64,000 bases of DNA, taken from a virus. Of the stretch, positions 20,489-58,570 are shown piece after piece; the stretch's first letter is position 1, and each line of letters opens with the position of its first letter. The stretch is taken from the IMG/VR virus record IMGVR_UViG_3300044770_000015. One strand, written 5' to 3'. Below the pieces are notes generated by a model, which made no database searches, was not told the DNA's origin, and saw nothing but the letters and a program-made list of their open reading frames with translations. The position numbers and the translations under genes were made by a program.

Positions 20489-20518
20489 CTTACCATCCTA
20501 TTAGGATGGATATATAAT
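20489..20518 (+). promoter_or_regulatory. putative promoter for the first plus-strand cassette
   Basis: TATAAT at 20513-20518 within ggatatataatataag. The -35 region (cCTTACCATcc) is weak but related to the class I ACCAT spacer. Confidence 0.35.
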
Positions 20519-20581
20519 ATAAGTATAGTAGGTAGGTAGGAATAGTTCCTATCTATTGTTACTATTAGTAGGAGATACTAA

Positions 20582-20785
20582 ATGAAACCGGTTACTGTTA
20601 CTGAGAAAGAAGTCGAGTCGGTTTTCGACTCAGCTAAGTACATCGCTGAAGTCGGAACGAAATCAGCTGCGATTCGTAAGCTGACTTCGGAAGGTAAGAC
20701 GAGATCGGAAGTCGCGAAGTTACTGAACATTCGCTACCAACACGTCAGGAACGTCCTGATCACTCCGATCAAGAAAGCGAAGTAA
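20582..20785 (+). CDS. small HTH DNA-binding protein, paralog 1
   Basis: 67 aa. KSAAIRKLTSEGKTRSEVAKLLNIRYQHVRNVLITPIKK aligns with 22370..22744 (KSNAIRGL...ISKHLGIIYQHARNVLLRPLK). AGGAG lies before the ATG. Confidence 0.8.
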   Translation: MKPVTVTEKEVESVFDSAKYIAEVGTKSAAIRKLTSEGKTRSEVAKLLNIRYQHVRNVLITPIKKAK

Positions 20786-20795
20786 GTCAGGAATA

Positions 20796-20823
20796 GGATA
20801 AGGATCCGAAAGGATCCTTATCC
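20796..20823 (+). terminator. 12-bp perfect hairpin after HTH paralog 1 (terminator/attenuator)
   Basis: ggataaggatcc-gaaa-ggatccttatcc, followed by a gtcttgtct tract that is only moderately T-rich. Confidence 0.45.
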
Positions 20824-20847
20824 GTCTTGTCTCGATAAGGAGGTCGT

Positions 20848-20943
20848 ATGACCTTAGTAATGGTAGCGGTAGTAGTAACTAGTCTCGTTCTCTACCTCGG
20901 AGCGGTACGTCCTCTACTCAGACGTCTGAGAGTCCTGGACTAG
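20848..20943 (+). CDS. 31-aa hydrophobic micro-protein
   Basis: Below the ORF track's size cutoff. AAGGAGG lies 4 nt before the ATG. My translation is MTLVMVAVVVTSLVLYLGAVRPLLRRLRVLD. A terminator follows directly. Confidence 0.5.
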   Translation: MTLVMVAVVVTSLVLYLGAVRPLLRRLRVLD

Positions 20944-20948
20944 ACGAG

Positions 20949-20976
20949 AGGACCTCTAGACGAGGTCCTTTCTCTT
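20949..20976 (+). terminator. rho-independent terminator
   Basis: aggacctc-tagac-gaggtcct, followed by ttctctt. Confidence 0.6.
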
Positions 20977-21158
20977 ACCTCATGGGGACTAGTCACATAC
21001 CTATGGACCGGGCCTATAGGGACTATAGACCTAGCCCGGTCGAGGACCTGTCCGAATGACCCTGAAAGTAGATTGAATGACAAAGCCAGACCGGTCCGTC
21101 ATTTGCCTATGCGCTAGTCCGTACGCCGACGTCCCTGTTAAATCATATAGTCGGACTC

Positions 21159-21188
21159 TTGAGACCATCTCGTGGACCAGCGTATAAT
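21159..21188 (+). promoter_or_regulatory. class I promoter (plus-strand copy)
   Basis: TTGAGA-18 nt-TATAAT. The upstream box AAATCATATAGTCG and the downstream ATATATGTAC are shared with the copy at 22263-22292. Confidence 0.6.
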
Positions 21189-21238
21189 ATATATGTACCA
21201 TAAATATAGTGGTACGGTTTTAACAACTAGGAGGTATC

Positions 21239-21433
21239 ATGAAAGGTAAGATCATGATAGGTAAGATAGGTGACAAGACCTTAAACATGGAGGTCGAAGA
21301 ACACCTAGTCGTAGAACACGTAGAACGTGACAATAAGAAGTACGTCTCGGTCTATTTCGGAAAGGGTGGTAAGCGGTCGAACTGGTATCTGATATTGAAC
21401 CAGGACGCGATCGACCAGATCAAAAAGATCTGA
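21239..21433 (+). CDS. hypothetical protein
   Basis: 64-aa ORF with AGGAGGT before the ATG. Confidence 0.6.
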   Translation: MKGKIMIGKIGDKTLNMEVEEHLVVEHVERDNKKYVSVYFGKGGKRSNWYLILNQDAIDQIKKI

Positions 21434-21445
21434 CAAGGAGATGAC

Positions 21446-21628
21446 ATGAGAACAATTCCGAGAAAGACTAAAGCCGTGACGCACGTCAAAGTCATGAAAG
21501 CCCTGGAGGAATATTGGCGGGCTGCCGAGGAACACGAAGATGACGATGTCATTCGTGACACATCGGTCGAAGGTCGGCTCAATGACTTTGCGATGTGGTT
21601 ATACCAGACCAGATTCAAGTCTGTCTAA
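21446..21628 (+). CDS. hypothetical protein
   Basis: 60-aa ORF with AAGGAG before the ATG. Confidence 0.55.
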   Translation: MRTIPRKTKAVTHVKVMKALEEYWRAAEEHEDDDVIRDTSVEGRLNDFAMWLYQTRFKSV

Positions 21629-21639
21629 CCGGAAGACAA

Positions 21640-21798
21640 ATGACCAAATACGTCATACACATCACACTCTGGCAGGTTAAAGACGGGGATTTCGACCTGC
21701 TCGAAGAAGAGGAGGTCAAGGGACTCGAAGATGAATACGAGTCCGAGACCGCTGCCAGGGAGGCTTTCAACACAGTCTCCAAATACGCACAGGTCTAA
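21640..21798 (+). CDS. hypothetical acidic protein
   Basis: I place the start at ATG 21640 (MTKYVIHITLWQVKDGDFDLLEEEEV...), which avoids overlap with the previous ORF. Confidence 0.5.
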   Translation: MTKYVIHITLWQVKDGDFDLLEEEEVKGLEDEYESETAAREAFNTVSKYAQV

Positions 21799-21857
21799 GG
21801 AGGTCACATGACAAAGACACAGTACACATTCACGATCGACAAATAACCAGAGCTGAC

Positions 21858-22109
21858 ATGAAACCACATAACCTGTTTACAGTTTGGTCCCCGGACTCCG
21901 TCGCCGAGTGCCTCGAAGGGGTTTCGCCCGAGCTTTATCGTCGGCTCTGGCAGCTGGCCGAAGAGCTACCTGCGGACACATCCGAAGTCCCGGACAACTT
22001 CGAAGTTCGGTGCCTCGCCAAGGTTTGGGACAAGCTGACGCCCGAAGAACAGTCCAAGCTCAACGAACTGGCCAAGAAGAACTATGGTAATACCCATAGG
22101 TTCGATTAG
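21858..22109 (+). CDS. hypothetical protein
   Basis: 83-aa ORF followed by a terminator. Confidence 0.55.
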   Translation: MKPHNLFTVWSPDSVAECLEGVSPELYRRLWQLAEELPADTSEVPDNFEVRCLAKVWDKLTPEEQSKLNELAKKNYGNTHRFD

Positions 22110-22116
22110 TACCCCG

Positions 22117-22142
22117 GAACCGTCGCAAGACGGTTTCTTTTG
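22117..22142 (+). terminator. rho-independent terminator
   Basis: aaccgtc-gcaa-gacggtt, followed by tctttt. Confidence 0.65.
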
Positions 22143-22262
22143 GACCCAAGGACCGGGGACTAGTCCGAATCGCGACATCAGCGCTTTGAATGCCCAGTCC
22201 TCAGGCAGTCCTTATGGCTAGCCCTAGCAAGGGCGTACCAGTAAAATCATATAGTCGCCCTC

Positions 22263-22292
22263 TTGCTACCATATGAGGGACTACTATATAAT
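22263..22292 (+). promoter_or_regulatory. class I promoter (plus-strand copy)
   Basis: TTGCTA-18 nt-TATAAT, with upstream AAATCATATAGTCG and downstream ATAGGTGTAC. Confidence 0.6.
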
Positions 22293-22369
22293 ATAGGTGT
22301 ACGCTCGAGAGAGGGTACAGTAGAGGCTCAGAGGCCTCGACTAACGTTCTTTAACAACCGGAGCATACC

Positions 22370-22744
22370 ATGGCGAAAGCCAAACCGCAAGTGCAACACG
22401 CGCCCGCGCAATCCGTGCCCGCGCAAACGACCCCGATCGTCGCCGAAGCGAAACCCGCGCAAGCGGTCGAACTGAAGACGATGGACGGTGTGACGGCCGA
22501 GAACTTTACGACCTTCACCAAGGAGCAGCTGATCACGGGTTACGGCAACAAGAGCAATGCGATCCGTGGTCTCGCGGCCTTGGGTCTCAAGCCGGGGCCC
22601 ATCTCGAAGCACCTGGGCATCATCTACCAGCACGCGAGGAACGTCCTCTTGCGTCCGCTGAAACGGGTGATCAAGGAAGAGCGGGCAGCCGCAGCAACAG
22701 CAGCGCAGGCCGCACCGGCCGGAGAACAGCCCGCCGGCAAGTAG
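22370..22744 (+). CDS. small HTH DNA-binding protein, paralog 2, with A/P/Q-rich N-terminal tail
   Basis: 124 aa. The core aligns with paralog 1. The tails are AKAKPQVQHAPAQSVPAQTTPIVAEAKPAQA and AAAATAAQAAPAGEQPAGK. GGAG lies before the ATG. Confidence 0.8.
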   Translation: MAKAKPQVQHAPAQSVPAQTTPIVAEAKPAQAVELKTMDGVTAENFTTFTKEQLITGYGNKSNAIRGLAALGLKPGPISKHLGIIYQHARNVLLRPLKRVIKEERAAAATAAQAAPAGEQPAGK

Positions 22745-22749
22745 TACCC

Positions 22750-22827
22750 ATGAAAGCCCTGATCTATGGGGTAGTCCTGGGTTTGACCCTAGTGGTTCTG
22801 ATCATCTGGATCGCTAGGCATCTGTGA
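22750..22827 (+). CDS. 25-aa hydrophobic micro-protein
   Basis: Below the ORF track's size cutoff. My translation is MKALIYGVVLGLTLVVLIIWIARHL. No clear SD, though it starts 6 nt after the upstream stop. Confidence 0.35.
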   Translation: MKALIYGVVLGLTLVVLIIWIARHL

Positions 22828-22874
22828 AGTACGGGGGCGATCGAAAGGTCGCTTCCGAACCGGAGAACCAGAGC

Positions 22875-23072
22875 ATGAAACGTCAATTCAGTGTCGTGAT
22901 GCGTCCCGACCGTACAACGCCGGGAACCTATCTCTACGCCGTCCCTGGCGATAAGAGGCCGTCGGCCGAGGTCAAGAACATCTACATCGGCAAGACCGCG
23001 TTCGCGGACATGCAAGCTCCCCCGGGCGAGATCATCGTTCGGGTCGAGTTCGACGACGGGAAGACGAAGTAG
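22875..23072 (+). CDS. hypothetical protein
   Basis: ATG 22875 (MKRQFSVVMRPD...) is preceded by GGAGAA. The track's alternative start is GTG 22824. Confidence 0.55.
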   Translation: MKRQFSVVMRPDRTTPGTYLYAVPGDKRPSAEVKNIYIGKTAFADMQAPPGEIIVRVEFDDGKTK

Positions 23073-23080
23073 TACAGGAG

Positions 23081-23109
23081 CCGCCCGAAGGTTGGGCGGT
23101 TTCTTTTTG
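23081..23109 (+). terminator. rho-independent terminator closing the plus-strand module
   Basis: ccgccc-gaaggtt-gggcgg, followed by tttcttttt. Confidence 0.8.
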
Positions 23110-23227
23110 TCGGTTGAGGGACATGTCAGTCTATAACGGTCCCGTGGACCAGTCTTAGTCTAGCCCTTGCGCCGGCTTTCTCGTAACTGTTCTTTGGCCA
23201 AATCGAGGGAGGCGGACCGAACTTTAC

Positions 23228-23513
23228 GAAGTAACGAAGTACTGCAGTCCCGAAGTTGTAACTTGTTGATTTCTAAGGGCTTTAGTAGTTCAGTAGTTAC
23301 AGTTCCTAGTTACTCTTAGTGTTCTATAGGTGGGAGACACATTGGGAAGATACAATTCCTGTATACCTACCCTGCCCAATACATTTATTGTATATAGGTT
23401 CACCCTTCCCCAACTTGTAACCACTTGATAGATTAGGAACTGTAAGTAGCGAACTACTTTCCCCTTAAAAATCAACTAGTTAGAACTGAGGGAACTCCCT
23501 ACTTCGTTACTTC
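23228..23513. repeat. long imperfect inverted repeat (about 83-bp arms, 123-bp spacer) in a non-coding region
   Basis: Arms are 23228-23310 and 23432-23513. The outer 14 bp, GAAGTAACGAAGTA, are perfect. The inner 25 bp (AGTAGTTCAGTAGTTACAGTTCCTA vs complement) match 22/25. Hand alignment gives roughly 75% identity overall. Confidence 0.8.
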
Positions 23514-23591
23514 CTAAGTATGGTCGTCTACTCCGTAAGTTGATAGAGGGTCATAAAGAACTTGTATCGCCGAACGAGTACGAGCAGTAAC

Positions 23592-23996
23592 CTAGTAGGA
23601 CACATGACTCATCCGAATCAACATCCGACCAGTATACTCGCCAGCTTCTTCGACGGCGGTAAAGCCTCGGCGGAGGAGCTCGGCAACGAGCAGCTCGAGC
23701 GCCCGAGGCAAGTCGCGATCGATGTAGTCCGAAGTCTGGAAGATTAGGTAAGGCCTCAAAAACGAAGGGGCGGGCTGATCCGTAAACGGTTTCCGTCCTT
23801 CCATGTTGGGCAATGCAACCAGAATTCGGTTGCCTCGGAAGACCTGGTGATAGGGCGATTTGACCTCTCGCACCTTGTAGATACAAGGACCAGCCCATCT
23901 GATGCGAAGGTTCTTAGCCCTAGGTGTGAAGAGGCGCAACTTGACGTGCACCTCCAAGGGCTTTGGTTGGTGAAGTGTTGGTTGTTCTTGGTTCAC
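23592..23996 (-). CDS. hypothetical protein (last gene of the leftward early region)
   Basis: 134-aa ORF. Its GTG start overlaps the upstream stop as GTGA. Confidence 0.6.
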   Translation of the reverse strand: MNQEQPTLHQPKPLEVHVKLRLFTPRAKNLRIRWAGPCIYKVREVKSPYHQVFRGNRILVALPNMEGRKPFTDQPAPSFLRPYLIFQTSDYIDRDLPRALELLVAELLRRGFTAVEEAGEYTGRMLIRMSHVSY

Positions 23997-24268
23997 TGTT
24001 CCTCCCTGTGTTCTGGTCTGGCAGAGAAACCACCGAGGAGCCCTTGACTGATCTCGTGAACCCTCAGTTCGGCCTTAGGGTCGTTATGCCGGATGTGCGA
24101 GGGGTCAATCCGCAACTTGGCGAGGATCATCGTTCCACATTCCGGACAATAGGTCGGTAACCGAGGATTGACCCAGCAGAGAAGGTGGTTACAACAAGGT
24201 GTACAGATCAACCTGAAGTGACACTGCTCGTGAGTGTAAAGACCCTCACCGATACGTTGCCTGGACAT
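23993..24268 (-). CDS. zinc-ribbon protein
   Basis: 91 aa with CTPCC...CPEC cysteine pairs. GGAGAA lies before the ATG. First gene after promoter 24312-24344. Confidence 0.65.
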   Translation of the reverse strand: MSRQRIGEGLYTHEQCHFRLICTPCCNHLLCWVNPRLPTYCPECGTMILAKLRIDPSHIRHNDPKAELRVHEISQGLLGGFSARPEHREEQ

Positions 24269-24311
24269 ATGGTTCTCCGGTTATGCAGACAGCAACATGC
24301 TATCTACACCT

Positions 24312-24344
24312 CTATTATATAGCAACCATAGAGGGTCAAGCAAG
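24312..24344 (-). promoter_or_regulatory. class I promoter
   Basis: Minus strand: CTTGC-TTGACCCTCTATGGTT-GCTATATAATAG, then AGGTGTA. Confidence 0.65.
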
Positions 24345-24364
24345 ATGCCAACCACTAAATTCTT

Positions 24365-24547
24365 TTACCTGCCATCGATCAGACCATTTCGGACCCTCCA
24401 TAGGACAAAGACCATAGCCCAATGGGTCATACCCATGACGAAAGCTGTTATCACTCCACTCTCTTCACCCGTATAGACCGCACCACAGTTCATGCCGAAG
24501 GCAAGAGCATTGAGTTGGATCAGTGCAGTCAGGATAATTCGCTTCAT
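24365..24547 (-). CDS. small membrane protein
   Basis: 60-aa ORF with two hydrophobic segments. Confidence 0.5.
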   Translation of the reverse strand: MKRIILTALIQLNALAFGMNCGAVYTGEESGVITAFVMGMTHWAMVFVLWRVRNGLIDGR

Positions 24548-24555
24548 GACCGCTA

Positions 24556-24741
24556 CTAATAGGGGACATACGAGATAACCCGCCTGAGACCGAGTTTCCG
24601 GAGAGTCTCAGGAGAAGGATTGGTCTTCTCGCCAGAACGAAGTCGGTGGAGATACGCCCAATCGAGTCCAACATCACGAGCAGCAGCCCTAAGGCTACCA
24701 TGTTGCTCCACCAACTGACCAATCCGCTCAGAGAGGGTCAT
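24556..24741 (-). CDS. XRE/Cro-type HTH protein
   Basis: I place the start at ATG 24741. MTLSERIGQLVEQHGSLRAAARDVGLDWAYLHRLRSGEKTNPSPETLRKLG is a typical HTH_XRE pattern. Confidence 0.65.
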   Translation of the reverse strand: MTLSERIGQLVEQHGSLRAAARDVGLDWAYLHRLRSGEKTNPSPETLRKLGLRRVISYVPY

Positions 24742-24746
24742 TAGGG

Positions 24747-25088
24747 CTATCGGAGCCAATCTCCAGTGCCATGATAAGCACCAACAAGACTCGTAACCTG
24801 CATGCACGAGAGGTTGTACCGATACGAAGGATGATCCCACCCCAAGCAGTGGCGACGCTCATGAGCCACTACGCAATCGCGATCGTGGGTAGAGGACGTA
24901 ACGAAGATATGGCAGATCCCAGTAACGGGATCGCGGACAGTCCACCCTTGAACCGAAGCTCCCCAAGGAGAGACGCCAATGTCGTGGATGTGGACCTCTT
25001 TGGGCCCGAACTCAGTCGTCCGAACCCAGTAAGGGCCCGATGCACACCCGACAAGTAGGACCAAAACCAAAAGCGCTAGACGTTCCAT
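24747..25088 (-). CDS. lipoprotein with metzincin-type HExxHxxGxxH motif
   Basis: I place the start at ATG 25088, preceded by GGAGGAG. Lipobox in MERLALLVLVLLVGC. AHERRHCLGWDH is followed by SCMQV, a possible Met-turn. Confidence 0.6.
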   Translation of the reverse strand: MERLALLVLVLLVGCASGPYWVRTTEFGPKEVHIHDIGVSPWGASVQGWTVRDPVTGICHIFVTSSTHDRDCVVAHERRHCLGWDHPSYRYNLSCMQVTSLVGAYHGTGDWLR

Positions 25089-25399
25089 ATCGGAATCTCC
25101 TCCAGTGGGACTACAGTTGTGTGCGGGTTGCCAACGCCTGAATTCGGGCGGATCCACGCTGTGATCTTCCCGGCGAGCATCCAGTCGTCTCGGCCGAGTT
25201 TACCATTAATCGAGCTCTGGAGCTGTCCAATAGCTGCCAAGAAGCTTCCGTTCCCTAGAGCAATCGACACAGCCTCCGAGGACACAACAGCCTCTAGGTT
25301 GTTAAGGTAGTACCCCCCAACACGACCGCACTCGCACCTCTTGGGCTTCATCGTCAGCTTGAAGACGTCCTCGCAGAACATGCAACAGATCAACTTCAT
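25076..25399 (-). CDS. zinc-finger protein
   Basis: 107 aa with CCMFC...CEC. ATGA coupling to the upstream gene. Confidence 0.6.
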   Translation of the reverse strand: MKLICCMFCEDVFKLTMKPKRCECGRVGGYYLNNLEAVVSSEAVSIALGNGSFLAAIGQLQSSINGKLGRDDWMLAGKITAWIRPNSGVGNPHTTVVPLEEIPIWNV

Positions 25400-25659
25400 G
25401 TTGGTTTCCCTCCTAGCTCCATTACGAGCAGATAGTTGACTTGAGCATCCCGATGAAAGAGGTCGGTAATATGGCTACACTCCTCGCACCGCCCAGACTT
25501 GTAGAACTTGTTCTGGTCTTCGAAGGTCTGACGTGCCCCACACTTGGCACAGGTGAACTTGAAGTACACGGCCGCCCCAGACCTAATGAGATCGTCCGCC
25601 CGTTCGAACATTGAGCGCAGGTGGTCGGGAATTGGACCTGTATAGGGCGTATCGCTCAC
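25396..25659 (-). CDS. zinc-ribbon protein
   Basis: GTG 25659 overlaps the upstream stop (GTGA), with GAGGAG upstream. Contains CAKCG...CEEC. Confidence 0.55.
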   Translation of the reverse strand: MSDTPYTGPIPDHLRSMFERADDLIRSGAAVYFKFTCAKCGARQTFEDQNKFYKSGRCEECSHITDLFHRDAQVNYLLVMELGGKPT

Positions 25660-25904
25660 ACCATCTCCTCCGTGATTGTGTGCCACACCATACCACTGTT
25701 GACCTCCATCACCTCGCACTCAAACCCCAGGTTCCGAAGATTGAGCACGGCTCGGAAGGCTCCCTCCGAACCTTTGAGGTGGTGGTAGAAGGCTGGACGA
25801 TCGTGATCGAACATCGGCGTAAAGGCATTGCGGAACTGGCTGAAGAATTCCGGTTTGCCGTCTTGGAGGCGGAGGCGGAAGACGAAGTAGCCAAGCCGGC
25901 TCAT
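25656..25904 (-). CDS. hypothetical protein
   Basis: 82-aa ORF, ATGA-coupled. Confidence 0.55.
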   Translation of the reverse strand: MSRLGYFVFRLRLQDGKPEFFSQFRNAFTPMFDHDRPAFYHHLKGSEGAFRAVLNLRNLGFECEVMEVNSGMVWHTITEEMV

Positions 25905-26140
25905 ATAGCAACCTCATATATGGCGTAGGCGATGAGGTCTTGGACTGTTGTCCAGTAGTGACCCTTGTGGTCGTTGCACTCCTCCCAGTCGAGGGCGTCG
26001 TAGGACTCGCCAAGCAGTTCCTCAAAGTCTTCCTTCGCCACTCGTTGGGCAAGAACTAGCTCCCGCTGAGGAACCCCAACCACCCGAGGAAAGGCTGGAG
26101 TAGTATCGTCTAGATACAGCACGATATACATCAGGTTCAT
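25901..26140 (-). CDS. hypothetical protein
   Basis: I place the start at ATG 26140 (MNLMYIVLYLDD...), overlapping the upstream stop as ATGA. Confidence 0.55.
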   Translation of the reverse strand: MNLMYIVLYLDDTTPAFPRVVGVPQRELVLAQRVAKEDFEELLGESYDALDWEECNDHKGHYWTTVQDLIAYAIYEVAI

Positions 26141-26358
26141 GACCCCTCCCGTTGGGCGGCGATCTCTTCGTGCATCAGCCGCTGTTGCTCTTTCAAGGGG
26201 AGCCCGACGAAATGATTGAGGGCCGCGAGCAACCAATCACGGTCAGTAAAGTTCACCTTGGCGACTGTCGTCAATCCAACAAACTTGACGATGTAGTTCT
26301 CGTTGCCTTCCATCCCGCGGACGAACCCGAATACTCTCTTAGGGTTGGGGTCTTTCAT
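26137..26358 (-). CDS. hypothetical protein
   Basis: 73-aa ORF, ATGA-coupled. Confidence 0.55.
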   Translation of the reverse strand: MKDPNPKRVFGFVRGMEGNENYIVKFVGLTTVAKVNFTDRDWLLAALNHFVGLPLKEQQRLMHEEIAAQREGS

Positions 26359-26840: not shown

Positions 26841-26841
26841 G

Positions 26842-27054: not shown

Positions 27055-27100
27055 CTGTATCTCCTAGTTGCTGTAGCCTGCAACATGCAAGCTTACACCT

Positions 27101-27133
27101 CTATTATATCGCAGTCCTCGCGATGGTAGCAAG
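27101..27133 (-). promoter_or_regulatory. class I promoter
   Basis: Minus strand: CTTGC-TACCATCGCGAGGACT-GCGATATAATAG, then AGGTGTA. Upstream box CCATCATAAGCCA. Confidence 0.65.
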
Positions 27134-27137
27134 TGGC

Positions 27138-27347
27138 TTATGATGGGGGCTCCACCTTGGTCTTGCGGAAGATCAAAAGGGCTGGCCGAGGCACGACGCG
27201 ATGGATAACGCCACTAAGTTCGTACCCTAGTTCGAGGAGTGTATCCAGATCCGCCAGGGCAGCCTCGCCTGCGATAGGAGGAGTAGTCAGCACAACATAG
27301 TACTTACCTTCCCTATCGACTGTGTACTCACGACCATTGACTAACAT
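27138..27347 (-). CDS. hypothetical protein
   Basis: 69-aa ORF. Confidence 0.5.
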   Translation of the reverse strand: MLVNGREYTVDREGKYYVVLTTPPIAGEAALADLDTLLELGYELSGVIHRVVPRPALLIFRKTKVEPPS

Positions 27348-29516: not shown

Positions 29517-29632
29517 GACTTGCTCCTTCTCCAGTTACCACCAGCACCATGCCAGTGGGTACTACATCCGAATCGAACTCACTAAGATTGGTAGCCTGTG
29601 TCTCTATCCACAGCGCTCCTCTTAGCTTAATT

Positions 29633-29665
29633 CCATTATATAGCGCTCCAGCGATGGTCATCAAG
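29633..29665 (-). promoter_or_regulatory. class I promoter
   Basis: Minus strand: CTTGA-TGACCATCGCTGGAGC-GCTATATAATGG. Confidence 0.55.
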
Positions 29666-29870
29666 AGTCATTTAATGCTCCATATGTACCGTCGTTCTGG
29701 GCTTGACGGAACTCCTCGCGGACAAAGAACTCGGAATAGTAAGCATACCAAGGATACTCACCATTCACACCGAGAATCTGTGCATACAATCCAGGCCTCT
29801 CACGGAAGACTAGCTGCCCAGTAATGGCATTCTGGATATGACTATAGCTGTGATTAACGGAGTCTGTCAC
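29661..29870 (-). CDS. hypothetical protein
   Basis: 69-aa ORF with a GTG start and no clear SD. Confidence 0.45.
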   Translation of the reverse strand: MTDSVNHSYSHIQNAITGQLVFRERPGLYAQILGVNGEYPWYAYYSEFFVREEFRQAQNDGTYGALNDS

Positions 29871-31349: not shown

Positions 31350-31398
31350 TGTACCTCCGACTTACCCGCTAGCTGCAACGTGCAACTAGCTTATACCC

Positions 31399-31431
31399 CT
31401 ATTATATAGCGACCACTAATGTGGTCGCAAG
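31399..31431 (-). promoter_or_regulatory. class I promoter
   Basis: Minus strand: CCATCATAAGACT-CTTGC-GACCACATTAGTGGTC-GCTATATAATAG-GGGTATA. Confidence 0.7.
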
Positions 31432-31450
31432 AGTCTTATGATGGTTGGTC

Positions 31451-33263: not shown

Positions 33264-33308
33264 GTAGTTCTCCGTTCCGTTTCCAGTTGGCTGCAATTCG
33301 CAGTATCC

Positions 33309-33341
33309 CTATTATATAGAACCCCCTAGAGGGTAAGCAAG
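33309..33341 (-). promoter_or_regulatory. class I promoter
   Basis: Minus strand: CATCATAAGCCA-CTTGC-TTACCCTCTAGGGGGT-TCTATATAATAG-GGATA. Confidence 0.65.
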
Positions 33342-33345
33342 TGGC

Positions 33346-33606
33346 TTATGATGTTACGGGCCCCGTGAGATACGATCCTATCTTAGCCTGCAGGGCAACA
33401 AAGTCGCGGAGGTCCATATCCAGGACCTCATCGTACGTAGGGTTCTTCCCGTCGATCTTCACTCCGAGTGTAATCAGTATAACAACTATGTCCTTGTCCT
33501 TGTCCGACTTCATCTCCGCTTGGGCTGCCAGGAGATCACGAGCCTTTAGCACACGTATGTGTGCAAAGGCACCAGACGGAAGAACAATCTCGCTGTCCGG
33601 ACTCAT
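33346..33606 (-). CDS. hypothetical protein
   Basis: 86-aa ORF, ATGA-coupled. Confidence 0.55.
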   Translation of the reverse strand: MSPDSEIVLPSGAFAHIRVLKARDLLAAQAEMKSDKDKDIVVILITLGVKIDGKNPTYDEVLDMDLRDFVALQAKIGSYLTGPVTS

Positions 33607-38417: not shown

Positions 38418-38443
38418 GGTGAACTCCTTTCTCAAGCCTGATT

Positions 38444-38476
38444 CAATTATACAGGCAAACTAAATGGGTCATCAAG
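38444..38476 (-). promoter_or_regulatory. class I promoter
   Basis: Minus strand: CCATCATTTGACA-CTTGA-TGACCCATTTAGTTTG-CCTGTATAATTG. Confidence 0.6.
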
Positions 38477-38497
38477 TGTCAAATGATGGTCGCCCGA

Positions 38498-42866: not shown

Positions 42867-42889
42867 AGAGTCCCTTTCATCAGCATACC

Positions 42890-42922
42890 CTATTATATAG
42901 CACCACAGCGATGGTTTGCAAG
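42890..42922 (-). promoter_or_regulatory. class I promoter
   Basis: Minus strand: CTTGC-AAACCATCGCTGTGGT-GCTATATAATAG-GGTATG. Confidence 0.65.
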
Positions 42923-42939
42923 AGTCAAATAAGCGTCGC

Positions 42940-46475: not shown

Positions 46476-46515
46476 TTGCGGGCCTCCTCAGGTGAATTGG
46501 ATTCGAGCTTATACC

Positions 46516-46548
46516 CTATTATACAGCAGTCCCAGCTATGGTATCTAG
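46516..46548 (-). promoter_or_regulatory. class I promoter (weak -35)
   Basis: Minus strand: CTAGA-TACCATAGCTGGGACT-GCTGTATAATAG-GGTATAAG. Confidence 0.5.
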
Positions 46549-46562
46549 TGGAGTACCATCAT

Positions 46563-48013: not shown

Positions 48014-48014
48014 G

Positions 48015-48485: not shown

Positions 48486-48495
48486 GGGCCTCTCC

Positions 48496-49260: not shown

Positions 49261-49281
49261 GTCTATCTCCGGTTGATGGAC

Positions 49282-49312: not shown

Positions 49313-49360
49313 TTCCTCAACAGATGCTCATACAACTACCCGAGCAGGTGCTCTTGCTCG

Positions 49361-52189: not shown

Positions 52190-52264
52190 TGAACTTCCTC
52201 CGCTGGTTGATTGCCTTGTGTGGCCGGGTGAGAGTAGCTCGAACCCTTAATTCATCCTATATCC

Positions 52265-52297
52265 CTATTATATAGGCTCAATAAGGGGGTCTACAAG
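52265..52297 (-). promoter_or_regulatory. class I promoter
   Basis: Minus strand: CTTGT-AGACCCCCTTATTGAG-CCTATATAATAG-GGATATA. The -35 overlaps the SNF2 stop codon. Confidence 0.6.
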
Positions 52298-53709
52298 TAG
52301 TTGACCATAGGAATTTGATGGGCGTGAACCTTGCCGTATCCTGCGAGGAACTCTCGGACGTTAATCACCTTACCATCTACTACCTCCATTACTTGATGGT
52401 AGTCCGAGCCTTCTGGTACTATGTATCGAACCATACAGGGAGTCTGTAGGATTGTGTCGAACCTGCGAAGACGCCCTTCAGCTTGGTAGTTATTATTCGG
52501 GTCCCAATCGAACCCTAGCATATATGCTGTATCCGTTGTATCCAGATCAAAACTTTGCGCAAAGGCGATCGTGCATAGTGCTACTCCTTGACTCTGCTTC
52601 CATGCCCGGACACGTTCGTTAATCTCGTCCGGCCGCATCCCACCGCGGAACACGAAGATTCTGTCCTCAGGGTACTTATCGTCAATAAGAGCCTGCCGCA
52701 ACACATCAAGCCCTTCGCGGAAGGGGCAGAATATAACAGTATGGCGATCGTCCGAGATAGTGTTGACCATCCAATCGATCACACCGCCATATTCGGCTGA
52801 GGGCATCAGGATCTTAGGACTAATCGCCATCTGCAACTTGCGGGTCAGAAGAGCAAGGGAGTTGGGTGTTACTACCCGATCTGGACCAAGCTCGACGATC
52901 ATCTCGGCGTCGAGCTCCCTAATGAGCTTGGTTTGTTGCTTGCCCATGAGGATCTCTTCCACGCGCCTTATGACAGGATTGGAGGAGGCAAACTCTCCTT
53001 TGCGGAACTGAGCTCCTACCTCAGGCCACGTTCTAGCTCTGTAGTACCGCTCGTGGAGCATCGCTCGGAGGTTCTCGGCATTACGGACGCCGAATATCTC
53101 CGTGCCATATGTGGACTTCTCTACGTAGCACCAGGTATTGACGAATCGCCAATAGGATGAGAAGGTCTGGCGATTCACGAGATTGAGCACAGGGAAACAA
53201 TCCTGAGGACCTCGTGAAGCCCAAGTCGCGGAGAGTCCAAGATAGTGTTCGAACTCTAGTCGCTTGAACTGCTCCCATATCTTATTCCGCGTCCGCATCA
53301 TCCGATGCAATTCATCGTTGACCAGCAGATCGAAGTAGGGTTTCCCTCTGAGAACAGTCTTCATGCCATAGAGGAAGGTCATGTATGTACACATGTACAC
53401 ACCTTCCTTAACAGCTAGAGCCTCGGCCCAAAGAGGATCGCTCTTACCCTGGATGAACTTAGGTTCGACTCCTCCCCATCGAGTCATAACCTTGTACCAA
53501 GTGGCCATTGACCCTAAGGTACCACAGATGAGGGCCTTGTTGGCTTTAGGCCACTTCGACCACGCTAGAAGACTAATGAAGGTCTTACCGAGACCAGTCT
53601 GATGTCCCAACACGACAGAGCTATTGCGAGCAGCAAAGTCGGCATCCTCCTTCTGGAACGGGACAGCCGACTCCCATGCTGCGGAGATGTTAAGATCTTG
53701 CAGGATCAT
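52291..53709 (-). CDS. SNF2-family helicase
   Basis: 472 aa. Motif I LGHQTGLGKTFISL, motif II VNDELHRM, and C-terminal helicase motifs (QAEGRLRR). Confidence 0.85.
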   Translation of the reverse strand: MILQDLNISAAWESAVPFQKEDADFAARNSSVVLGHQTGLGKTFISLLAWSKWPKANKALICGTLGSMATWYKVMTRWGGVEPKFIQGKSDPLWAEALAVKEGVYMCTYMTFLYGMKTVLRGKPYFDLLVNDELHRMMRTRNKIWEQFKRLEFEHYLGLSATWASRGPQDCFPVLNLVNRQTFSSYWRFVNTWCYVEKSTYGTEIFGVRNAENLRAMLHERYYRARTWPEVGAQFRKGEFASSNPVIRRVEEILMGKQQTKLIRELDAEMIVELGPDRVVTPNSLALLTRKLQMAISPKILMPSAEYGGVIDWMVNTISDDRHTVIFCPFREGLDVLRQALIDDKYPEDRIFVFRGGMRPDEINERVRAWKQSQGVALCTIAFAQSFDLDTTDTAYMLGFDWDPNNNYQAEGRLRRFDTILQTPCMVRYIVPEGSDYHQVMEVVDGKVINVREFLAGYGKVHAHQIPMVNYL

Positions 53710-54501: not shown

Positions 54502-55011
54502 TTACCTCCTGCGCCGTTGGCTACGACGCTCTCTTTGGAACACATCCTTGATGGTGTATTGCTTCGGCACTTCCTTCTTGAAGAGCTCCTGCAGATGCTC
54601 CACCAGCTTGACGACATCGTGATCCAGATAGCTTTCGATGTCGGGATCGACACGCCCACGCGGAGGGCGATCATCGATCAACGTACCATAATGGAGTGCA
54701 TCGATCATGATCGCTGCACAGCAGCGGATATACCCGAGGTGCGAGATGAGGGTCTTGGAGTCCACATGATCGCCAGCCTGGAGTTTCAAACCATGGCGCA
54801 TCAACGCGGAATAGTACACGGACATCTTGACTGGTTTCATCCTCCAGTTGAAGCGGCCGTACTTCAGTGCCCCTTCGAGGAACGCCAGCGCCTCTGCGAT
54901 GATCGCCGTCTCCGGTACGAGGGAGAGGTCGAGCTTGCTTTGCGCAACGAGATCCTTCGGGTTGACGGCTCTGAAGTACGGGTCTTTGGGCTTGAGTTTC
55001 TTGACTGTCAT
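54502..55011 (-). CDS. dATP/dGTP diphosphohydrolase-like protein (DUF5664-type)
   Basis: I place the start at ATG 55011, preceded by GGAGGAAAG; it overlaps the RuvC stop as ATGA. LSLVPETAIIAEALAFLEGALKYGRFNWR matches what I recall of this family. Confidence 0.55.
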   Translation of the reverse strand: MTVKKLKPKDPYFRAVNPKDLVAQSKLDLSLVPETAIIAEALAFLEGALKYGRFNWRMKPVKMSVYYSALMRHGLKLQAGDHVDSKTLISHLGYIRCCAAIMIDALHYGTLIDDRPPRGRVDPDIESYLDHDVVKLVEHLQELFKKEVPKQYTIKDVFQRERRSQRRRR

Positions 55012-55511
55012 GACTTTCCTCCGGTAGTAGGAATATGCAGTTTTGCAATGGTGAACAATAGGTAGTAACATGCATGTCTTATTGCGTCACGGGCGTGTTT
55101 CTGGTTTATTTGGTACACCCCCCATGCCTTAAGCTTGTCGTCAGTACAGAACCCTTTACCTTGCTGGGCAGTCTGCTTGACAAGTGGAAGCTGATCGAGA
55201 TTGTAGCGGCAAATGTACTCCACAGCCCCAATGAGACGAGGGGTATGTAGACCTGCCCATGCATGGTCCTTGGTCTTCCAGCTGTACACTCGGTAGTCTT
55301 CTATGACTACAACAGCGTTGCTAGTCCGGAACATTGACAGATACTCGTACACAGTATACGCAGCATCAGGCATTAGCCCAGTCGAGAGTTGACGGGCATC
55401 AATAAGATCGGGTCCATCGAATACGCAGGCGCCTGTAGTCTCGCCTGGATCGAGCGCCAAAACCCTCAGGCGACTATCGCCTAGGGCCTCCTGTAGGAGG
55501 TTGTTGGCCAT
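55008..55511 (-). CDS. RuvC-like Holliday junction resolvase
   Basis: LRVLALDPGETTGA, VVVIEDYRVY, KHARDAIRHA. I prefer ATG 55511; the track's GTG 55562 would read through the terminator hairpin. Confidence 0.75.
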   Translation of the reverse strand: MANNLLQEALGDSRLRVLALDPGETTGACVFDGPDLIDARQLSTGLMPDAAYTVYEYLSMFRTSNAVVVIEDYRVYSWKTKDHAWAGLHTPRLIGAVEYICRYNLDQLPLVKQTAQQGKGFCTDDKLKAWGVYQINQKHARDAIRHACYYLLFTIAKLHIPTTGGKS

Positions 55512-55512
55512 A

Positions 55513-55559
55513 TTAAAAAGCCTGCGGGGTGGAGCTAGGTGGAGATCTCCACCCCGCAG
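55513..55559 (-). terminator. strong rho-independent terminator after HTH paralog 3
   Basis: Perfect 13-bp stem, ctgcggggtggag (55522-34) with ctccaccccgcag (55547-59). On the minus strand it is followed by GCTTTTTAAT. Confidence 0.8.
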
Positions 55560-55604
55560 CACCCTGGGTCAGAGGAACCCAGGGACCGGAGAAACGACGA
55601 CGAC

Positions 55605-55883
55605 TTACTTCGCAGCCGGCGCAGCGGCGGCGGCTTCCTTCTTGGCCTTGGTGGCCGCGAACACGATCTGGTACGGGACGCCGAGTTCCTTGGCGATCTC
55701 GCCGCGCTTCGCACCTTCCGCGAAACGACGCTTGATGTAGTCGACCCGACGCTCGCCGGAATCCAGAACGATCGCGGCGCCGACCTTGTTGGTGGCAGGT
55801 GCGACCAACGGGGCCGGCGCTGCTACCGGGGCGGGGGCGGGGGCTGCGGCTTTCGGGGCTTGCTTCTGCGGTGCTTGTGCCAT
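55605..55883 (-). CDS. small HTH DNA-binding protein, paralog 3, with A/P/K-rich tails
   Basis: I place the start at ATG 55883, preceded by AAGGAG. RRVDYIKRRFAEGAKRGEIAKELGVPYQIVFAATKAKKEAAAAAPAAK. Confidence 0.75.
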   Translation of the reverse strand: MAQAPQKQAPKAAAPAPAPVAAPAPLVAPATNKVGAAIVLDSGERRVDYIKRRFAEGAKRGEIAKELGVPYQIVFAATKAKKEAAAAAPAAK

Positions 55884-55939
55884 GACATGCTCCTTCACTG
55901 GTTGAGGTTGTATATCGGCTTCTAATGAAGTCGATGCTT

Positions 55940-55972
55940 AGATTATATAGCATCGAGTGTAGTCCTCGCAAC
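55940..55972 (-). promoter_or_regulatory. class I promoter
   Basis: Minus strand: CCATCAAAATCCA-GTTGC-GAGGACTACACTCGAT-GCTATATAATCT. Confidence 0.6.
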
Positions 55973-55995
55973 TGGATTTTGATGGTACCCAAAGT

Positions 55996-58458
55996 TCATT
56001 TGACGGGCGTGAGACGGTAGCCGTCTCGATTAGCGTATTTACCCGGCATCTCCATGAAACCCGCTACGGTCTCGACCATATATTTGTGCGATTTGACATA
56101 CCGAGAGAGCCTCCGCGCATTCGTGAGGGTCTGATTGTCCAAGAAGTCCTCGCGACTCTCGGCCCAAGCAGCGATGTCCTGTAGGGTGAAGACCTTCTTC
56201 GGATCTTTCTGGAACTGACCGATGTACTCCTGGTTGAACTGCTTCAGACCTTCCATCGTCCAATCGTATTCACTGACCTGAGTCTCGGCCACTCCAGCAA
56301 GGGTCTGCGAGACCAACTCAGCATCAGGTACGCCGATAATGTTCCCTATGAGCCTGAACATCTGCTCGAAGTGCGCCAACCGATGGCCCGACTTGTAATT
56401 AGGGTTCCACCCACCGCTATTAGCCCGACGAAAGAACAGGTGGAGAACAGCTAGCTGTTGAGCGAGCCATCCTACACGCCCACCAAAGGCTTTCAGAGCC
56501 ATGCCAGCCCAGTCAGAGGAATGATCCTTACCTACTGCCTGGACCTCTACGATTAAGCTGCGCTGAAGGATGTCCGCGCTTAGGAATGGTTGTTGGATTG
56601 CGGTCATTGCGAACGTAACCCTTACTGGGAGGCGGAAGTTGTCCGACGTGGTGAAGAGCTTGCGCATCTCGACGAATGGTGCTGGCTCGGTTACGATTCG
56701 GCAGATCTCGTCCGAAAGCCGTTGTCGCAGTTCCTTGTTCACCATATGGACATTGTCCACACAGTGCAAGCCATCGCCTGAGGTTATTGATGCATACCAA
56801 TCCCGAACGTCTGTCGGCTGGTTCCTTAGGGCTGGACGGCCGTTGAGGATCTGCAATCGGAGACTGTACAAACTGGATTTCCCTGAGCCTGGTTCGCCAA
56901 CCATTAGCTCCACTGGTAACTGAGTTCCGTTCCACCGCAATAACCATGGCGACATATAGTTCAAGCATGAGAGCACCTTCGCGTCATTATCACGGGAGAA
57001 CTTCATCTGGGCTAGTGCCTTAGGCCAATAGAGCTCCATGTAGGGAGGCTTCTTGAGGAGCCACGCAATCTGGCGCTTAACTTCCTGCAGGAGGGCACCT
57101 CGGTCTATAGGTTCTACTTGGTCAGCCTTGAAGAGGACCCCTTCTGAGCCATTCTCGCAAATTGTGATAGGGTTAGTTGCATCACCTGACACGACTGCGA
57201 AATGGCCATCATCGAGCTGGTAAGCAATTCGATTGTCAGACAACAGTGCGAGAACGCTTCGGGGTTCAACCTGTGAGACTGGTTCTTCACCTGTGAATCC
57301 AGCTGCGAGCCATTGGACGAGCTTGAGGTCGGCTTGTCCGATGTCATAATTGCGGTAGAGGAACTCCCCGAACTTGGTTTCATGTAGAGGCTCCGAATGG
57401 TGTTGCATTAAGTTGACGGACATTAATGCCTTTGTCCGACTATCGAAGAAGTGCGGCGAGTTCGTGCCTTTCTCTATCATGCGGATACCATGGCGATCCA
57501 TATCTGTCAGGATCATCAAACTGAGCTCTTTGGCTTCCGCGCGATCCAGTTGGCCGCTCATCCGCTTGTTGACGAGCGCCTTGAGATTGGGGTGTGCAGG
57601 GAAAGCTGACTTGGCAGCCATCACCTGTTCTAGCAACTGATCGAGAGCTTCCGGTCCATGTTGTGTCAGAAAGTCATCCAATCCCAATTTCTTCCCGGGA
57701 TTAGCCGGTAGCTTAAGCTGGCGAATCTTGTTCGTCGGGATGCCATGGATCCTAAACTCGAACGCCATCTCGGCACAAGCTGCCTCGACATCCGTGTTGA
57801 TAGGGTTATCGGTGTCAAACGCAAAGATAACCTGCATGTGGTTCTCGAGGACGAACCGCATAAGTCCTTCAAGGCCTGCGGCTAAGAAGGCTCTCCGATC
57901 ACTAGTGGGAGGTAAAGTGGTACCAGTCGCCATCTTGGCAACAATCTGGTTGTCTCGGTTCTTGAGGAGAGTTGTCCCTTCTGGGAGGATTACTGTCCTA
58001 GTACGCCAGTTGTATACACCACCAACAGCACATGTGGGAAAGCCATCATGACATCCCTTTGCCGCCTTCTTCTCGCCCTCTGTCACTATGACAGCAGCAG
58101 GGTACCCATTGATCTTTGTCCGACCTTTGTCTTGAGCTGCATTCTTGAGTAGGGCAGCGAAGGTCTTAGGGAAGTATATCCACGTACCGGAGTTCTGGGG
58201 CTGTAGGTATCGAGCTCCCTTAGGAAGGGGATTGAAGAGCCTGACCCTATAGAATGGAGCCCTATGCCCATTGAGGTCGTAGTAGGGGATCACATACCCT
58301 GGAGTCCCGACACCGGGGTTATCTAAGTAGAGGTGTGGTCTGATCCCTACTGCAGCTAGCTCAGTTTCCTGGGCCAGATAGGCATCCAGGTCAACAGCTT
58401 TGAGGCCGCTCCTACCTAGATCCTCTGCTAGGAGCTGCTCTGAAGTGACTACTTGCAC
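55996..58458 (-). CDS. bifunctional primase-helicase (TOPRIM + SF3/D5-like NTPase)
   Basis: 820 aa. TOPRIM: AVIVTEGEKKA, FAFDTDNP. Walker A: MVGEPGSGKSS. GTG start with GGAGGG upstream. Confidence 0.8.
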   Translation of the reverse strand: MQVVTSEQLLAEDLGRSGLKAVDLDAYLAQETELAAVGIRPHLYLDNPGVGTPGYVIPYYDLNGHRAPFYRVRLFNPLPKGARYLQPQNSGTWIYFPKTFAALLKNAAQDKGRTKINGYPAAVIVTEGEKKAAKGCHDGFPTCAVGGVYNWRTRTVILPEGTTLLKNRDNQIVAKMATGTTLPPTSDRRAFLAAGLEGLMRFVLENHMQVIFAFDTDNPINTDVEAACAEMAFEFRIHGIPTNKIRQLKLPANPGKKLGLDDFLTQHGPEALDQLLEQVMAAKSAFPAHPNLKALVNKRMSGQLDRAEAKELSLMILTDMDRHGIRMIEKGTNSPHFFDSRTKALMSVNLMQHHSEPLHETKFGEFLYRNYDIGQADLKLVQWLAAGFTGEEPVSQVEPRSVLALLSDNRIAYQLDDGHFAVVSGDATNPITICENGSEGVLFKADQVEPIDRGALLQEVKRQIAWLLKKPPYMELYWPKALAQMKFSRDNDAKVLSCLNYMSPWLLRWNGTQLPVELMVGEPGSGKSSLYSLRLQILNGRPALRNQPTDVRDWYASITSGDGLHCVDNVHMVNKELRQRLSDEICRIVTEPAPFVEMRKLFTTSDNFRLPVRVTFAMTAIQQPFLSADILQRSLIVEVQAVGKDHSSDWAGMALKAFGGRVGWLAQQLAVLHLFFRRANSGGWNPNYKSGHRLAHFEQMFRLIGNIIGVPDAELVSQTLAGVAETQVSEYDWTMEGLKQFNQEYIGQFQKDPKKVFTLQDIAAWAESREDFLDNQTLTNARRLSRYVKSHKYMVETVAGFMEMPGKYANRDGYRLTPVK

Positions 58459-58537
58459 TTGAACTCGCCCTCCGGTAGAGCGGCACTGAAGTCATAGCCA
58501 GGAACTTGCCGGCACAAATAGACTCGCAGCGCTAATG

Positions 58538-58570
58538 CTATTATATAGCGGTCCAAAGGGAACAATCAAC
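58538..58570 (-). promoter_or_regulatory. class I promoter (first of the leftward early region)
   Basis: Minus strand: GTTGA-TTGTTCCCTTTGGACC-GCTATATAATAG. It lies 19 nt after the endolysin stop. Confidence 0.6.

Follow-up and report, generated by a model that had tools for sequence, protein, structure and literature searches.

Near-identical sets of sigma-70-type promoter cassettes are already well known in phages, among them the promoter-early stem-loop (PeSL) cassettes of T4-like phages (Arbiol et al. 2010; Comeau et al. 2014, PMC4122927). We analyzed a 53-bp unit of comparable design that is repeated along 64,000 nucleotides of viral DNA (IMG/VR record IMGVR_UViG_3300044770_000015; this whole stretch is hereafter called the window). 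At a probability of about 0.68, the units are lineage-specific, near-consensus promoters for the host RNA polymerase (RNAP) carrying its primary, sigma-70-type sigma factor. They are unusual in three respects: the TATAAT is invariant, the spacer is held at 18 nt, and the ACCATCA box varies in position. Like the units described here, PeSLs occur as dozens of near-identical intergenic cassettes of ~50-60 bp in which a near-consensus sigma-70-type promoter is followed by a Shine-Dalgarno (SD) sequence and a start codon; they are also concentrated in the non-structural part of the genome, with some copies at indel or gene-replacement junctions. In contrast, the stem-loop or terminator just upstream, the A/T-rich upstream region, and the 17-nt spacer of a PeSL are absent here, whereas our units have their stem-loops downstream, where the predicted transcript starts, together with an ACCATCA box of defined sequence and an 18-nt spacer, and belong to an unrelated siphovirus-type lineage. 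Lacking the upstream stem-loop or terminator that defines a PeSL, the unit does not qualify as one.

Other phage promoters offer partial parallels. The early promoters of coliphages T5 and T7 (A1-A3) are reportedly read by unmodified host RNAP. They are said to resemble the units in near-consensus hexamers, in a homology that reaches past the hexamers to an upstream block near -43 and to the surroundings of +1, and in serving a lytic phage that out-competes host promoters. Their reported 17-nt spacer, A/T-rich upstream block, and conserved transcribed sequence set them apart from the units, which have an 18-nt spacer, a C-containing box of flexible orientation, and conservation that ends at +2. 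The middle promoters of T4 depend on a MotA box plus AsiA, and the late promoters of P2 and P4 on an Ogr/Delta site near -55. As in both of these types, a -10 element for host sigma-70 is paired here with an upstream element particular to the phage; in T4 and P2 that element distinguishes a temporal class and has a small phage protein as its reader, as the box might. However, the MotA box (TGCTT) replaces the -35 element at -30, whereas the TTG of the -35 is invariant here at -36 to -34; the P2 site is a dyad (TGT-N12-ACA), whereas the box is single and asymmetric. No homologs of MotA, AsiA, or Ogr were found among the scanned open reading frames (ORFs). With a TTG -35 present, no dyad, and no factor homologs, the T4-middle and P2-late promoter types were rejected for the units, as was the promoter of a T7-type single-subunit RNAP (~23 bp, without -35 and -10 hexamers), given that the hexamers are present and that no RNAP family is represented among the large ORFs.

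A further parallel comes from Brevundimonas phage Strzyga (ON529867), an unrelated phage that infects the same host as StAshley, one of the nearest isolated relatives of the window. A sigma-70-like unit of its own, with conserved flanks, is repeated in Strzyga: TTGACn-N16-TATGAT-GTCTTCATC (TTGACn-N16-TATGATGTCTTCATC), at ~21200-26200, ahead of at least seven small genes. It differs from the unit described here in its spacer (N16), its -10 element (TATGAT), and its conserved transcribed block, and it lacks both the ACCATCA box and the family of helix-turn-helix (HTH)-like proteins discussed below. The fact that Strzyga carries a repeated unit of its own indicates that promoter sets of this kind are ordinary. 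In bacterial core promoters, C enrichment and a YRY start element are weak tendencies and 17 nt is the dominant spacer within a 16-18 range (PMC12641261), whereas the corresponding features of the unit are near-fixed and its spacer is 18 nt. In the literature, the motif strings matched nothing but unrelated primers.

The anatomy of the unit was defined from an alignment of 45 non-redundant copies, taken both from the window and from its relatives, with TATAAT numbered -12 to -7. Conservation begins sharply at -51 and ends at +2, and ~20 bits of it fall on positions that played no part in collecting the copies. A preliminary description of this DNA had recognized conservation well beyond the two hexamers, which the alignment bears out, and had drawn its limits at about -50 and +10. 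The upstream edge stands and the downstream edge does not: the conserved initially transcribed block that was reported consists of the discriminator and the start site, and there is no sequence conservation past +2. Read from its upstream end, the consensus is A-51 C C A T c A, then W A w g M, then C-39 W C-37; the -35 element is T-36 T G, followed by A or C, T or G, and a, with c and C-29 next. The spacer carries G-21 G-20 R and, further on, T-17 g C-15 T-14 a, directly before TATAAT, which is followed by A-6 G-5. G-3. T-1 A+1 T+2. The TTG of the -35 element is found in 42-45 of the 45 copies, with hexamer positions 4-6 weak, and the spacer measures 18 nt in ~41 of 42 copies, at the upper edge of the accepted 16-18 nt range. 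TATAAT is perfect in all 14 strong window copies. Both the fixed 18-nt spacer and the perfect TATAAT had been proposed earlier, and both were upheld in a scan with only the upstream half of the unit (-51 to -29), whose matches of at least ~14 bits all have a perfect TATAAT at exactly 18 nt, save one at 17 nt. The invariant -10 element and the fixed spacer are thus real features rather than artefacts of how the copies were selected.

TTG together with TATAAT is the signature of primary sigma factors. Most of the remaining conserved positions match known contacts at the level of sequence: C at -37 and -39 and the T-1/A+1/T+2 triplet coincide with generic contact points between RNAP and a primary sigma factor, and the span from -51 to +2 coincides with the region of sequence-specific RNAP contacts. 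In the start element, T-1 occurs in 30, A+1 in 28, and T+2 in 24 of the 45 units, centred 7 nt after TATAAT. A G two bases past the -10 element is reportedly the preferred contact of sigma region 1.2. Across 49 bacteria, C enrichment directly upstream of the -35 element, at the 3' end of the upstream promoter (UP) region, and a YRY 'start' element were described (Kuo et al. 2025, PMC12641261). The upstream C is general in bacterial promoters and has been attributed to contacts with sigma-70 R554/R586. In the 49-species work, the YRY element is centred 7-8 nt past the -10, determines where transcription starts, and makes promoters stronger. Highly negatively supercoiled DNA favours long spacers (PMC9303308), and the uniform 18-nt spacer suggests that the whole promoter set would respond together to template supercoiling.

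Several other interpretations of the conserved positions were tried and rejected. An N4-like hairpin or cruciform in the spacer has a mean z of only -0.45 against shuffles, its 'pairs' being the conserved ACC and GG(T/A) blocks, and a hairpin around the -10 is not significant (z -0.27). Readings of the box as an IHF, DnaA, CtrA, or CcrM site fail as general explanations because the spacing is unlike WATCAA-N4-TTR and because roughly half of the copies lack GACTC (GANTC). The Caulobacter promoter register, TTGaCgS-N10-14-GCtANAWC (PMC8144410), was considered in its alphaproteobacterial form TTGaCgS-N13-GCtANAWC; its geometry and the gCTA before TATAAT fit, and the invariant AAT is left unexplained.

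The repeat was located in the window with a position weight matrix (PWM) built from 30 units of related phages only, to avoid circularity; a first 70-column PWM was dropped as over-fitted. All fourteen copies listed in the preliminary description are present, including the plus-strand copy at 20489 that it had called weak and that scores 15.3 bits. The PWM returns 14 strong sites of 26.6-59.8 bits, namely the eleven listed minus-strand copies, the plus-strand copies at 21183 and 22287, and a minus-strand copy at 20308 that had not been listed. Besides these 14 and the weak copy, no window site reaches 8 bits; ten shuffles gave 0-2 matches of at least 8 bits each, with a maximum of 20.3. An additional degenerate copy on the minus strand at 10932 falls below 8 bits with this class I matrix. 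Two simpler scans agree: GCTATATAATAG with at most two mismatches has 12 matches in the window against 1.5 expected, and a generic sigma-70 scan ranks the units at the top, all with the 18-nt spacer. TATAAT occurs 19 times in the window, against 9.7 +/- 2.8 expected, and 16 of the 19 occurrences are in units. The three outside units, set against the ~9.7 expected for the whole window, suggest that stray strong -10 elements are avoided in coding sequence.

Every copy is intergenic and oriented like the next gene, and the matrix scan placed no strong copy inside coding sequence. The upstream ORF stops 18-48 nt ahead of TATAAT in most copies, and an SD sequence with a start codon follows 25-81 nt past it in most. 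The intergenic placement described earlier therefore holds for all copies, and the SD and start codon said to follow each copy hold for most: copy 20308 is leaderless, and in the 80 nt after copy 29640 no SD and start codon could be clearly made out. Eleven units point the same way along a replication and nucleotide-metabolism train that occupies the minus strand between 58.5 and 23.5 kb (~35 kb). On the coding strand, no terminator-like sites were found between these eleven co-directional units or upstream of any unit. The absence of terminators between them suggests that the units act as successive boosters along one long gene train.

The transcripts predicted from the units tend to begin with a stem-loop. 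The segment from +1 to +33 is more structured than shuffles (mean z -1.33; 47% below -1.5); the spacer, the surroundings of the -10, and the upstream flank are not (mean z -0.24 for -77 to -45). Hairpins with z of -2.4 or lower were found in five of eight units tested. At 24319, 31406, 55947, 22287, and 21183 they start 0-3 nt from the predicted +1, with z from -2.4 to -4.6. That the hairpins begin at the predicted +1 lends independent support to the predicted start site. The 5' stem-loops are located at 24275-24309, 27064-27098, 31362-31396, and 55903-55937 on the minus strand and at 21193-21227 and 22297-22331 on the plus strand. The hairpin of unit 27108 shows a compensatory double change, U-A to A-U, in a relative (L165; L-numbers, from L081 to L225, label the compared phage sequences, L225 being Strzyga), and at orthologous sites in L123 and L125 the hairpin still forms from different sequences. 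The loop context GCAUGUUGC is common to several of the 5' stem-loops. In E. coli, 5' stem-loops are said to protect mRNAs; those described here probably stabilize or protect the transcript 5' ends in a similar manner.

Comparison with relatives points to selection. The same architecture is found at orthologous sites in phages whose polymerase is 58-69% identical to that of the window (before the nuclease gene, before the 276-aa ORF and PolA, after PolA, and before the 38.4-kb gene), and the non-conserved columns vary freely. The pattern GGCGACCATCATTTGGACTCTTGATG-N18-TATAAT recurs in the more distant L221-L223 and in L081/L113. StAshley has a looser form, for example GACCATCTAGGACTCTCTTGACA-N17-TATAAT before the terminase-side operon, with spacers of 15-18 nt. 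The orthologous units in relatives with polymerases 58-69% identical, together with the looser StAshley form, indicate that the units are kept by selection and not just by recent copying.

The preferred reading can be laid out as a mechanism. Each unit is a compact 53-bp cassette that fits closely into the space separating one gene's stop codon from the ribosome-binding site of its downstream neighbour. In it, sigma region 4 would read C.C-TTGnnn at -39 to -31, and sigma region 2 would read TATAAT at -12 to -7. The A-G-.-G discriminator and the T-1/A+1/T+2 start element would then fix initiation 7 nt past the -10. The ACCATCA box at about -51 to -45 would serve as an upstream accessory site, most likely read by the alpha C-terminal domains of the polymerase or by another DNA-binding protein on the same helix face. 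Eleven same-direction promoters would repeatedly reinforce transcription along the 35-kb train, three further units would drive a small divergent regulatory island, and two variants (AACCATT-TATAAT, without a box at -51) would start the structural genes as leaderless transcripts. The stem-loop at many transcript starts would complete the arrangement by shielding the 5' end. The same core serves early, regulatory-island, and late genes, and scans of ~75 ORFs against Pfam and PHROGs found no sigma factor, no RNAP, no MotA- or AsiA-like protein, and no other known transcription protein. The units thus look like very strong start signals for host RNAP, and we infer that the host holoenzyme may read them alone. 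The preliminary description had favoured a phage-specific determinant, such as a phage factor or a modified host RNAP, over plain sigma70 promoters. That view does not stand for most of the extra positions, which fall on generic RNAP-sigma contacts, no phage sigma factor, RNAP, or sigma modifier having been detected. The idea of a phage factor survives as a minority hypothesis for the ACCATCA box only, on account of its shift and inversion and its co-occurrence with the HTH-like proteins.

Several observations weigh against promoters read by the host enzyme unaided. The -35 element is conserved at TTG only and an 18-nt spacer is suboptimal for an E. coli-type polymerase, so that unaided strength is not guaranteed. 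The box lacks the A/T richness of a classical UP element, and its tolerance of inversion and of a 10-bp shift would be more usual for the site of a transcription factor; it also co-occurs with a lineage-specific HTH-like family. Finally, many small ORFs have no detectable homologs, and an unrecognized factor may be among them.

These points lead to the alternative that survives best, in which host RNAP reads the core while a phage DNA-binding protein on the ACCATCA box, a class I-type activator or a repressor, sets the use or shut-off of the class I units. We regard this as rather unlikely. Its starting point is the box itself. A distinct upstream box of the ATCA type had been noted earlier and is indeed present, as ACCATCA around -51 to -45, and the box region from -51 to -37 holds ~9-10 bits. 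The box lies at -51 in six window copies and at -61, one helical turn away, in units 52272 and 10932; it is inverted (TGATGGT) at -50 in unit 46523 and all its orthologs, and shifted by 5 nt in the island promoters. This positional flexibility suits a protein bound on one helix face, which could be a tethered alpha C-terminal domain or a transcription factor. The box lies where an UP element would (-38 to -59) and is partly A/T (ATCAWAW), yet it has conserved C's and is invertible. The two late promoters, which lack the box at the standard position and share a different signature, fit a class-specific reader; however, promoters that must fire first on a naive host have the same box, and the box is a single asymmetric site without a dyad. 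ACCATCA is not enriched elsewhere in the genome.

The candidates for such a reader are three small HTH-like paralogs of 67 aa (20582-20785, plus strand), 124 aa (22370-22744, plus strand), and 91 aa (55605-55880, minus strand). Each is encoded directly behind a unit, and they have the motif KSxAIRxL..G....I(S/A)K.L.I.YQH.RNVL..P.K in common. In an AlphaFold2 model, the core (predicted local distance difference test, pLDDT, ~90) is a bundle of short helices, and the best Foldseek neighbours are small HTH domains. None of these is significant (E > 2), and there is no sequence or profile match in Pfam, PHROG, or PDB, which leaves the fold assignment as a point against the proposed reader. The family profile also weakly and non-significantly resembles the alpha1-L1-alpha2 segment of histone H4 (E = 0.09). 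The family is confined to this phage lineage. Phages that have both the family and units with the box belong to three groups that have diverged from one another, namely the window clade, StAshley/MaInes, and L081/L113/L221-L223, and Strzyga, a phage of StAshley's host, has neither box nor family; the co-occurrence may merely reflect shared ancestry. An imperfect palindrome with 19-nt arms (20482-20520; core CCATCCTA.TAGGATGG) covers both hexamers of the promoter that precedes the 67-aa gene and contains CCATC/GATGG, a further point in favour of the proposed reader. In the close relative L165, though, the equivalent palindrome has changed (GTCAT..ATGAC) while the boxes remain CCATCA. A second inverted repeat, ACCAAAATTTTGCAA/TTGCAGGATTTTGGT, was observed at 20381-20423, where the 67-aa gene's promoter and the late promoter diverge; both repeats look like operators. 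The 124-aa protein may be considered a candidate accessory factor.

A bolder version holds that the ACCATCA box and the HTH-like paralogs form a portable transcription-control module, present in several diverged phage groups, that recruits or later releases host RNAP at promoters with half a -35 element and an 18-nt spacer. We consider it improbable. If true, it would represent a new accessory-factor system for host transcription takeover, and phage DNA that is highly supercoiled and carries 7-deazaguanine modifications might be the template to which it is suited.

It is very unlikely that the units are primarily portable cassettes whose recombination homologies shuffle gene modules, as suggested for PeSLs, with their uniformity arising from gene conversion instead of constraint at each position. 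PeSLs of T4-like phages provide a precedent (PMC4122927), and a few junctions in the relatives fall at units. In L183 (3971-5087), an extra unit and ~0.9 kb of unrelated DNA immediately precede the counterpart of unit 58545; in L129 (9929-11374) and L130 (14100-14555), the window genes of ~38.5-41.5 kb, between the ligase gene and unit 38451, are missing and that unit occupies the junction; in L127, synteny breaks right after two units. Such cassette-like indels bounded by units make recombination there a plausible side effect. Yet most units are in stable synteny, at orthologous positions in the core replication module, and no PeSL-type upstream stem-loop or terminator is present. Moreover, conservation is position-specific while other positions vary freely between copies and orthologs, a pattern that homogenization would not yield. 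That the units are read by a phage sigma factor or RNAP diverged past detection is barely credible: the very uniform sequence, the spacer fixed at 18 nt, and the many ORFs of unknown function would accommodate it, but the TTG and TATAAT hexamers are the signature of primary sigma factors, neither sigma-70 regions 2 or 4 nor any RNAP family has a match among the ORFs, the four ORFs of >700 aa are all accounted for (primase-like protein, PolA, ribonucleotide reductase, and tape measure protein), and an early phage polymerase would itself need host-type promoters, no second promoter class being found in the early region.

The copies in the window are as follows. The first unit of the train, 58545 (58532..58584, minus strand; TATAAT 58545-58540; TTGATT-18-TATAAT; 39.6 bits), follows the endolysin gene and precedes an 820-aa primase-like gene; the upstream ORF stops 43 nt before TATAAT, and GGAGG with a GTG start lies 81 nt after it. 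Unit 55947 (55934..55986, minus strand; TATAAT 55947-55942; 33.1 bits) has ACCATCA at -51 and is located ahead of the 91-aa HTH-like paralog, with a 5' hairpin of z = -4.6. Unit 52272 (52259..52311, minus strand; TATAAT 52272-52267; 33.6 bits), with CCATCA displaced to -61, precedes the PD-(D/E)XK nuclease gene and has orthologs in L123, L130, and L127. Unit 46523 (46510..46562, minus strand; TATAAT 46523-46518; 32.7 bits) has TAGATA as its -35 and the inverted box TGATGGT at -50; it lies ahead of the 276-aa ORF and PolA and is kept in eight relatives, where the -35 is TTGATA. Unit 42897 (42884..42936, minus strand; TATAAT 42897-42892; 40.6 bits) comes after PolA and ahead of an 82-aa ORF and the ligase gene, with orthologs in L123, L120, and L125. 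In unit 38451 (38438..38490, minus strand; TATAAT 38451-38446; 42.7 bits), ACCATCA at -51 is followed by TTGACA-C-TTGATG; orthologs are found in L123, L125, and L130.

The downstream half of the train includes the best matches to the consensus. Unit 33316 (33303..33355, minus strand; TATAAT 33316-33311; 52.0 bits) has GGAG with an ATG 47 nt downstream. Unit 31406 (31393..31445, minus strand; TATAAT 31406-31401) is the best consensus match at 59.8 bits, and its 5' hairpin reaches -15.4 kcal/mol (z = -3.6). Unit 29640, the copy without a clear SD plus start, spans 29627..29679 (minus strand; TATAAT 29640-29635; 46.8 bits). Unit 27108 (27095..27147, minus strand; TATAAT 27108-27103; 51.4 bits) has CCATCA at -50. 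Unit 24319 (24306..24358, minus strand; TATAAT 24319-24314; 26.6 bits) is the last of the early train, with a 5' hairpin of -15.8 kcal/mol (z = -4.3). Three units on the plus strand belong to the small island at 20.5-23.1 kb. The weak copy listed as 20489 (20474..20526; TATAAT at 20513; TTACCA-17-TATAAT) is located ahead of the 67-aa HTH-like gene. Unit 21183 (21144..21196; TATAAT 21183-21188; 29.9 bits) carries the box variant AAATCATATAGTC 5 nt further upstream than usual and has a 5' hairpin of z = -2.4. Unit 22287 (22248..22300; TATAAT 22287-22292; 40.6 bits) precedes the 124-aa HTH-like gene, with a 5' hairpin of z = -2.5. Two strong terminator-like hairpins on the plus strand, 23076-23104 and 20796-20823, end the island transcripts; the former is located where plus- and minus-strand transcription converge.

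The two late-type promoters lie ahead of structural genes, have no box at -51, and contain the exact 13-mer AACCATTTATAAT. Copy 20308 (20295..20347, minus strand; TTGACA-18-TATAAT; 26.9 bits) matches 12 of 12 hexamer positions; AACCATT precedes its TATAAT, it has no ACCATCA box, and it would drive a 370-aa ORF ahead of the terminase gene. Copy 10932 (10919..10971, minus strand) is degenerate, with GGTGAC-18-TATAAT and AACCATT, and has CCATCA at -61. In both, an ATG follows 6 nt past the -10, such that its A is the predicted +1, and leaderless late mRNAs are therefore predicted. The ATG of copy 10932 begins a 9-codon mini-ORF that ends on the first codon of the 572-aa head gene, stop and start overlapping as TGATG. 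The leaderless late arrangement of the 20308-type unit is also found in L165, L213, L214, and L216.

The window (G+C 54.6%) is a near-complete genome of a tailed phage (64–69 kb) known solely from metagenome assemblies and representing an uncultivated, siphovirus-type lineage. Its capsid gene is identical on a 68.9-kb ENA contig and on 16 further contigs. No close DNA relative was found among 50,697 phage records. Among isolated phages, StAshley and MaInes, which infect Brevundimonas, come closest (47% identity in the capsid, 37% in the polymerase), and IMG/VR relatives form a clade whose polymerases are 58-91% identical to that of the window. In the host search, no tRNAs were found in the window, and capsid relatives in GTDB genomes are spread across many phyla; the sole cultured relatives infect Brevundimonas. 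Rfam families gave no match in the window. The minus strand carries nearly all genes. The train encodes the primase-like protein, an SNF2-type helicase, the PD-(D/E)XK nuclease, FolE/QueE/QueD/QueC, PolA, ligase, class II ribonucleotide reductase, and ThyX. The structural block, with terminase, portal, capsid, tape measure, tail, and endolysin genes, runs from 20.3 kb down to 1 and wraps to 64-58.6 kb.

Two side observations concern the replication genes. First: a complete preQ0-type 7-deazaguanine pathway (FolE, QueE, QueD, QueC) and a MazZ-like dATP/dGTP diphosphohydrolase are encoded, and the 276-aa ORF, which is syntenic in StAshley, sits between the deazaguanine-pathway genes and PolA (minus-strand regions 46563-49335, 54502-55071, and 45645-46475, listed jointly for the 7-deazaguanine, MazZ-like, and 276-aa ORF genes). 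The 276-aa ORF could be a diverged DNA transglycosylase, and the phage DNA is probably hypermodified at G. Second: the family A DNA polymerase (43183-45660, minus strand) has an N-terminal uracil-DNA-glycosylase-superfamily domain and a 3'-5' exonuclease domain.

The analysis provides a transcription map for an abundant uncultivated phage lineage, with 14-16 predicted start sites, two promoter classes, and leaderless late genes. The ~45 natural variants, all of one very strong promoter whose spacer is fixed at 18 nt, would be useful for promoter grammar and, once the host is identified, as expression parts. If the HTH-like proteins read the upstream box, they would constitute a new family of small phage regulators; otherwise, the units would represent a clean but ordinary case of phage promoter optimization.

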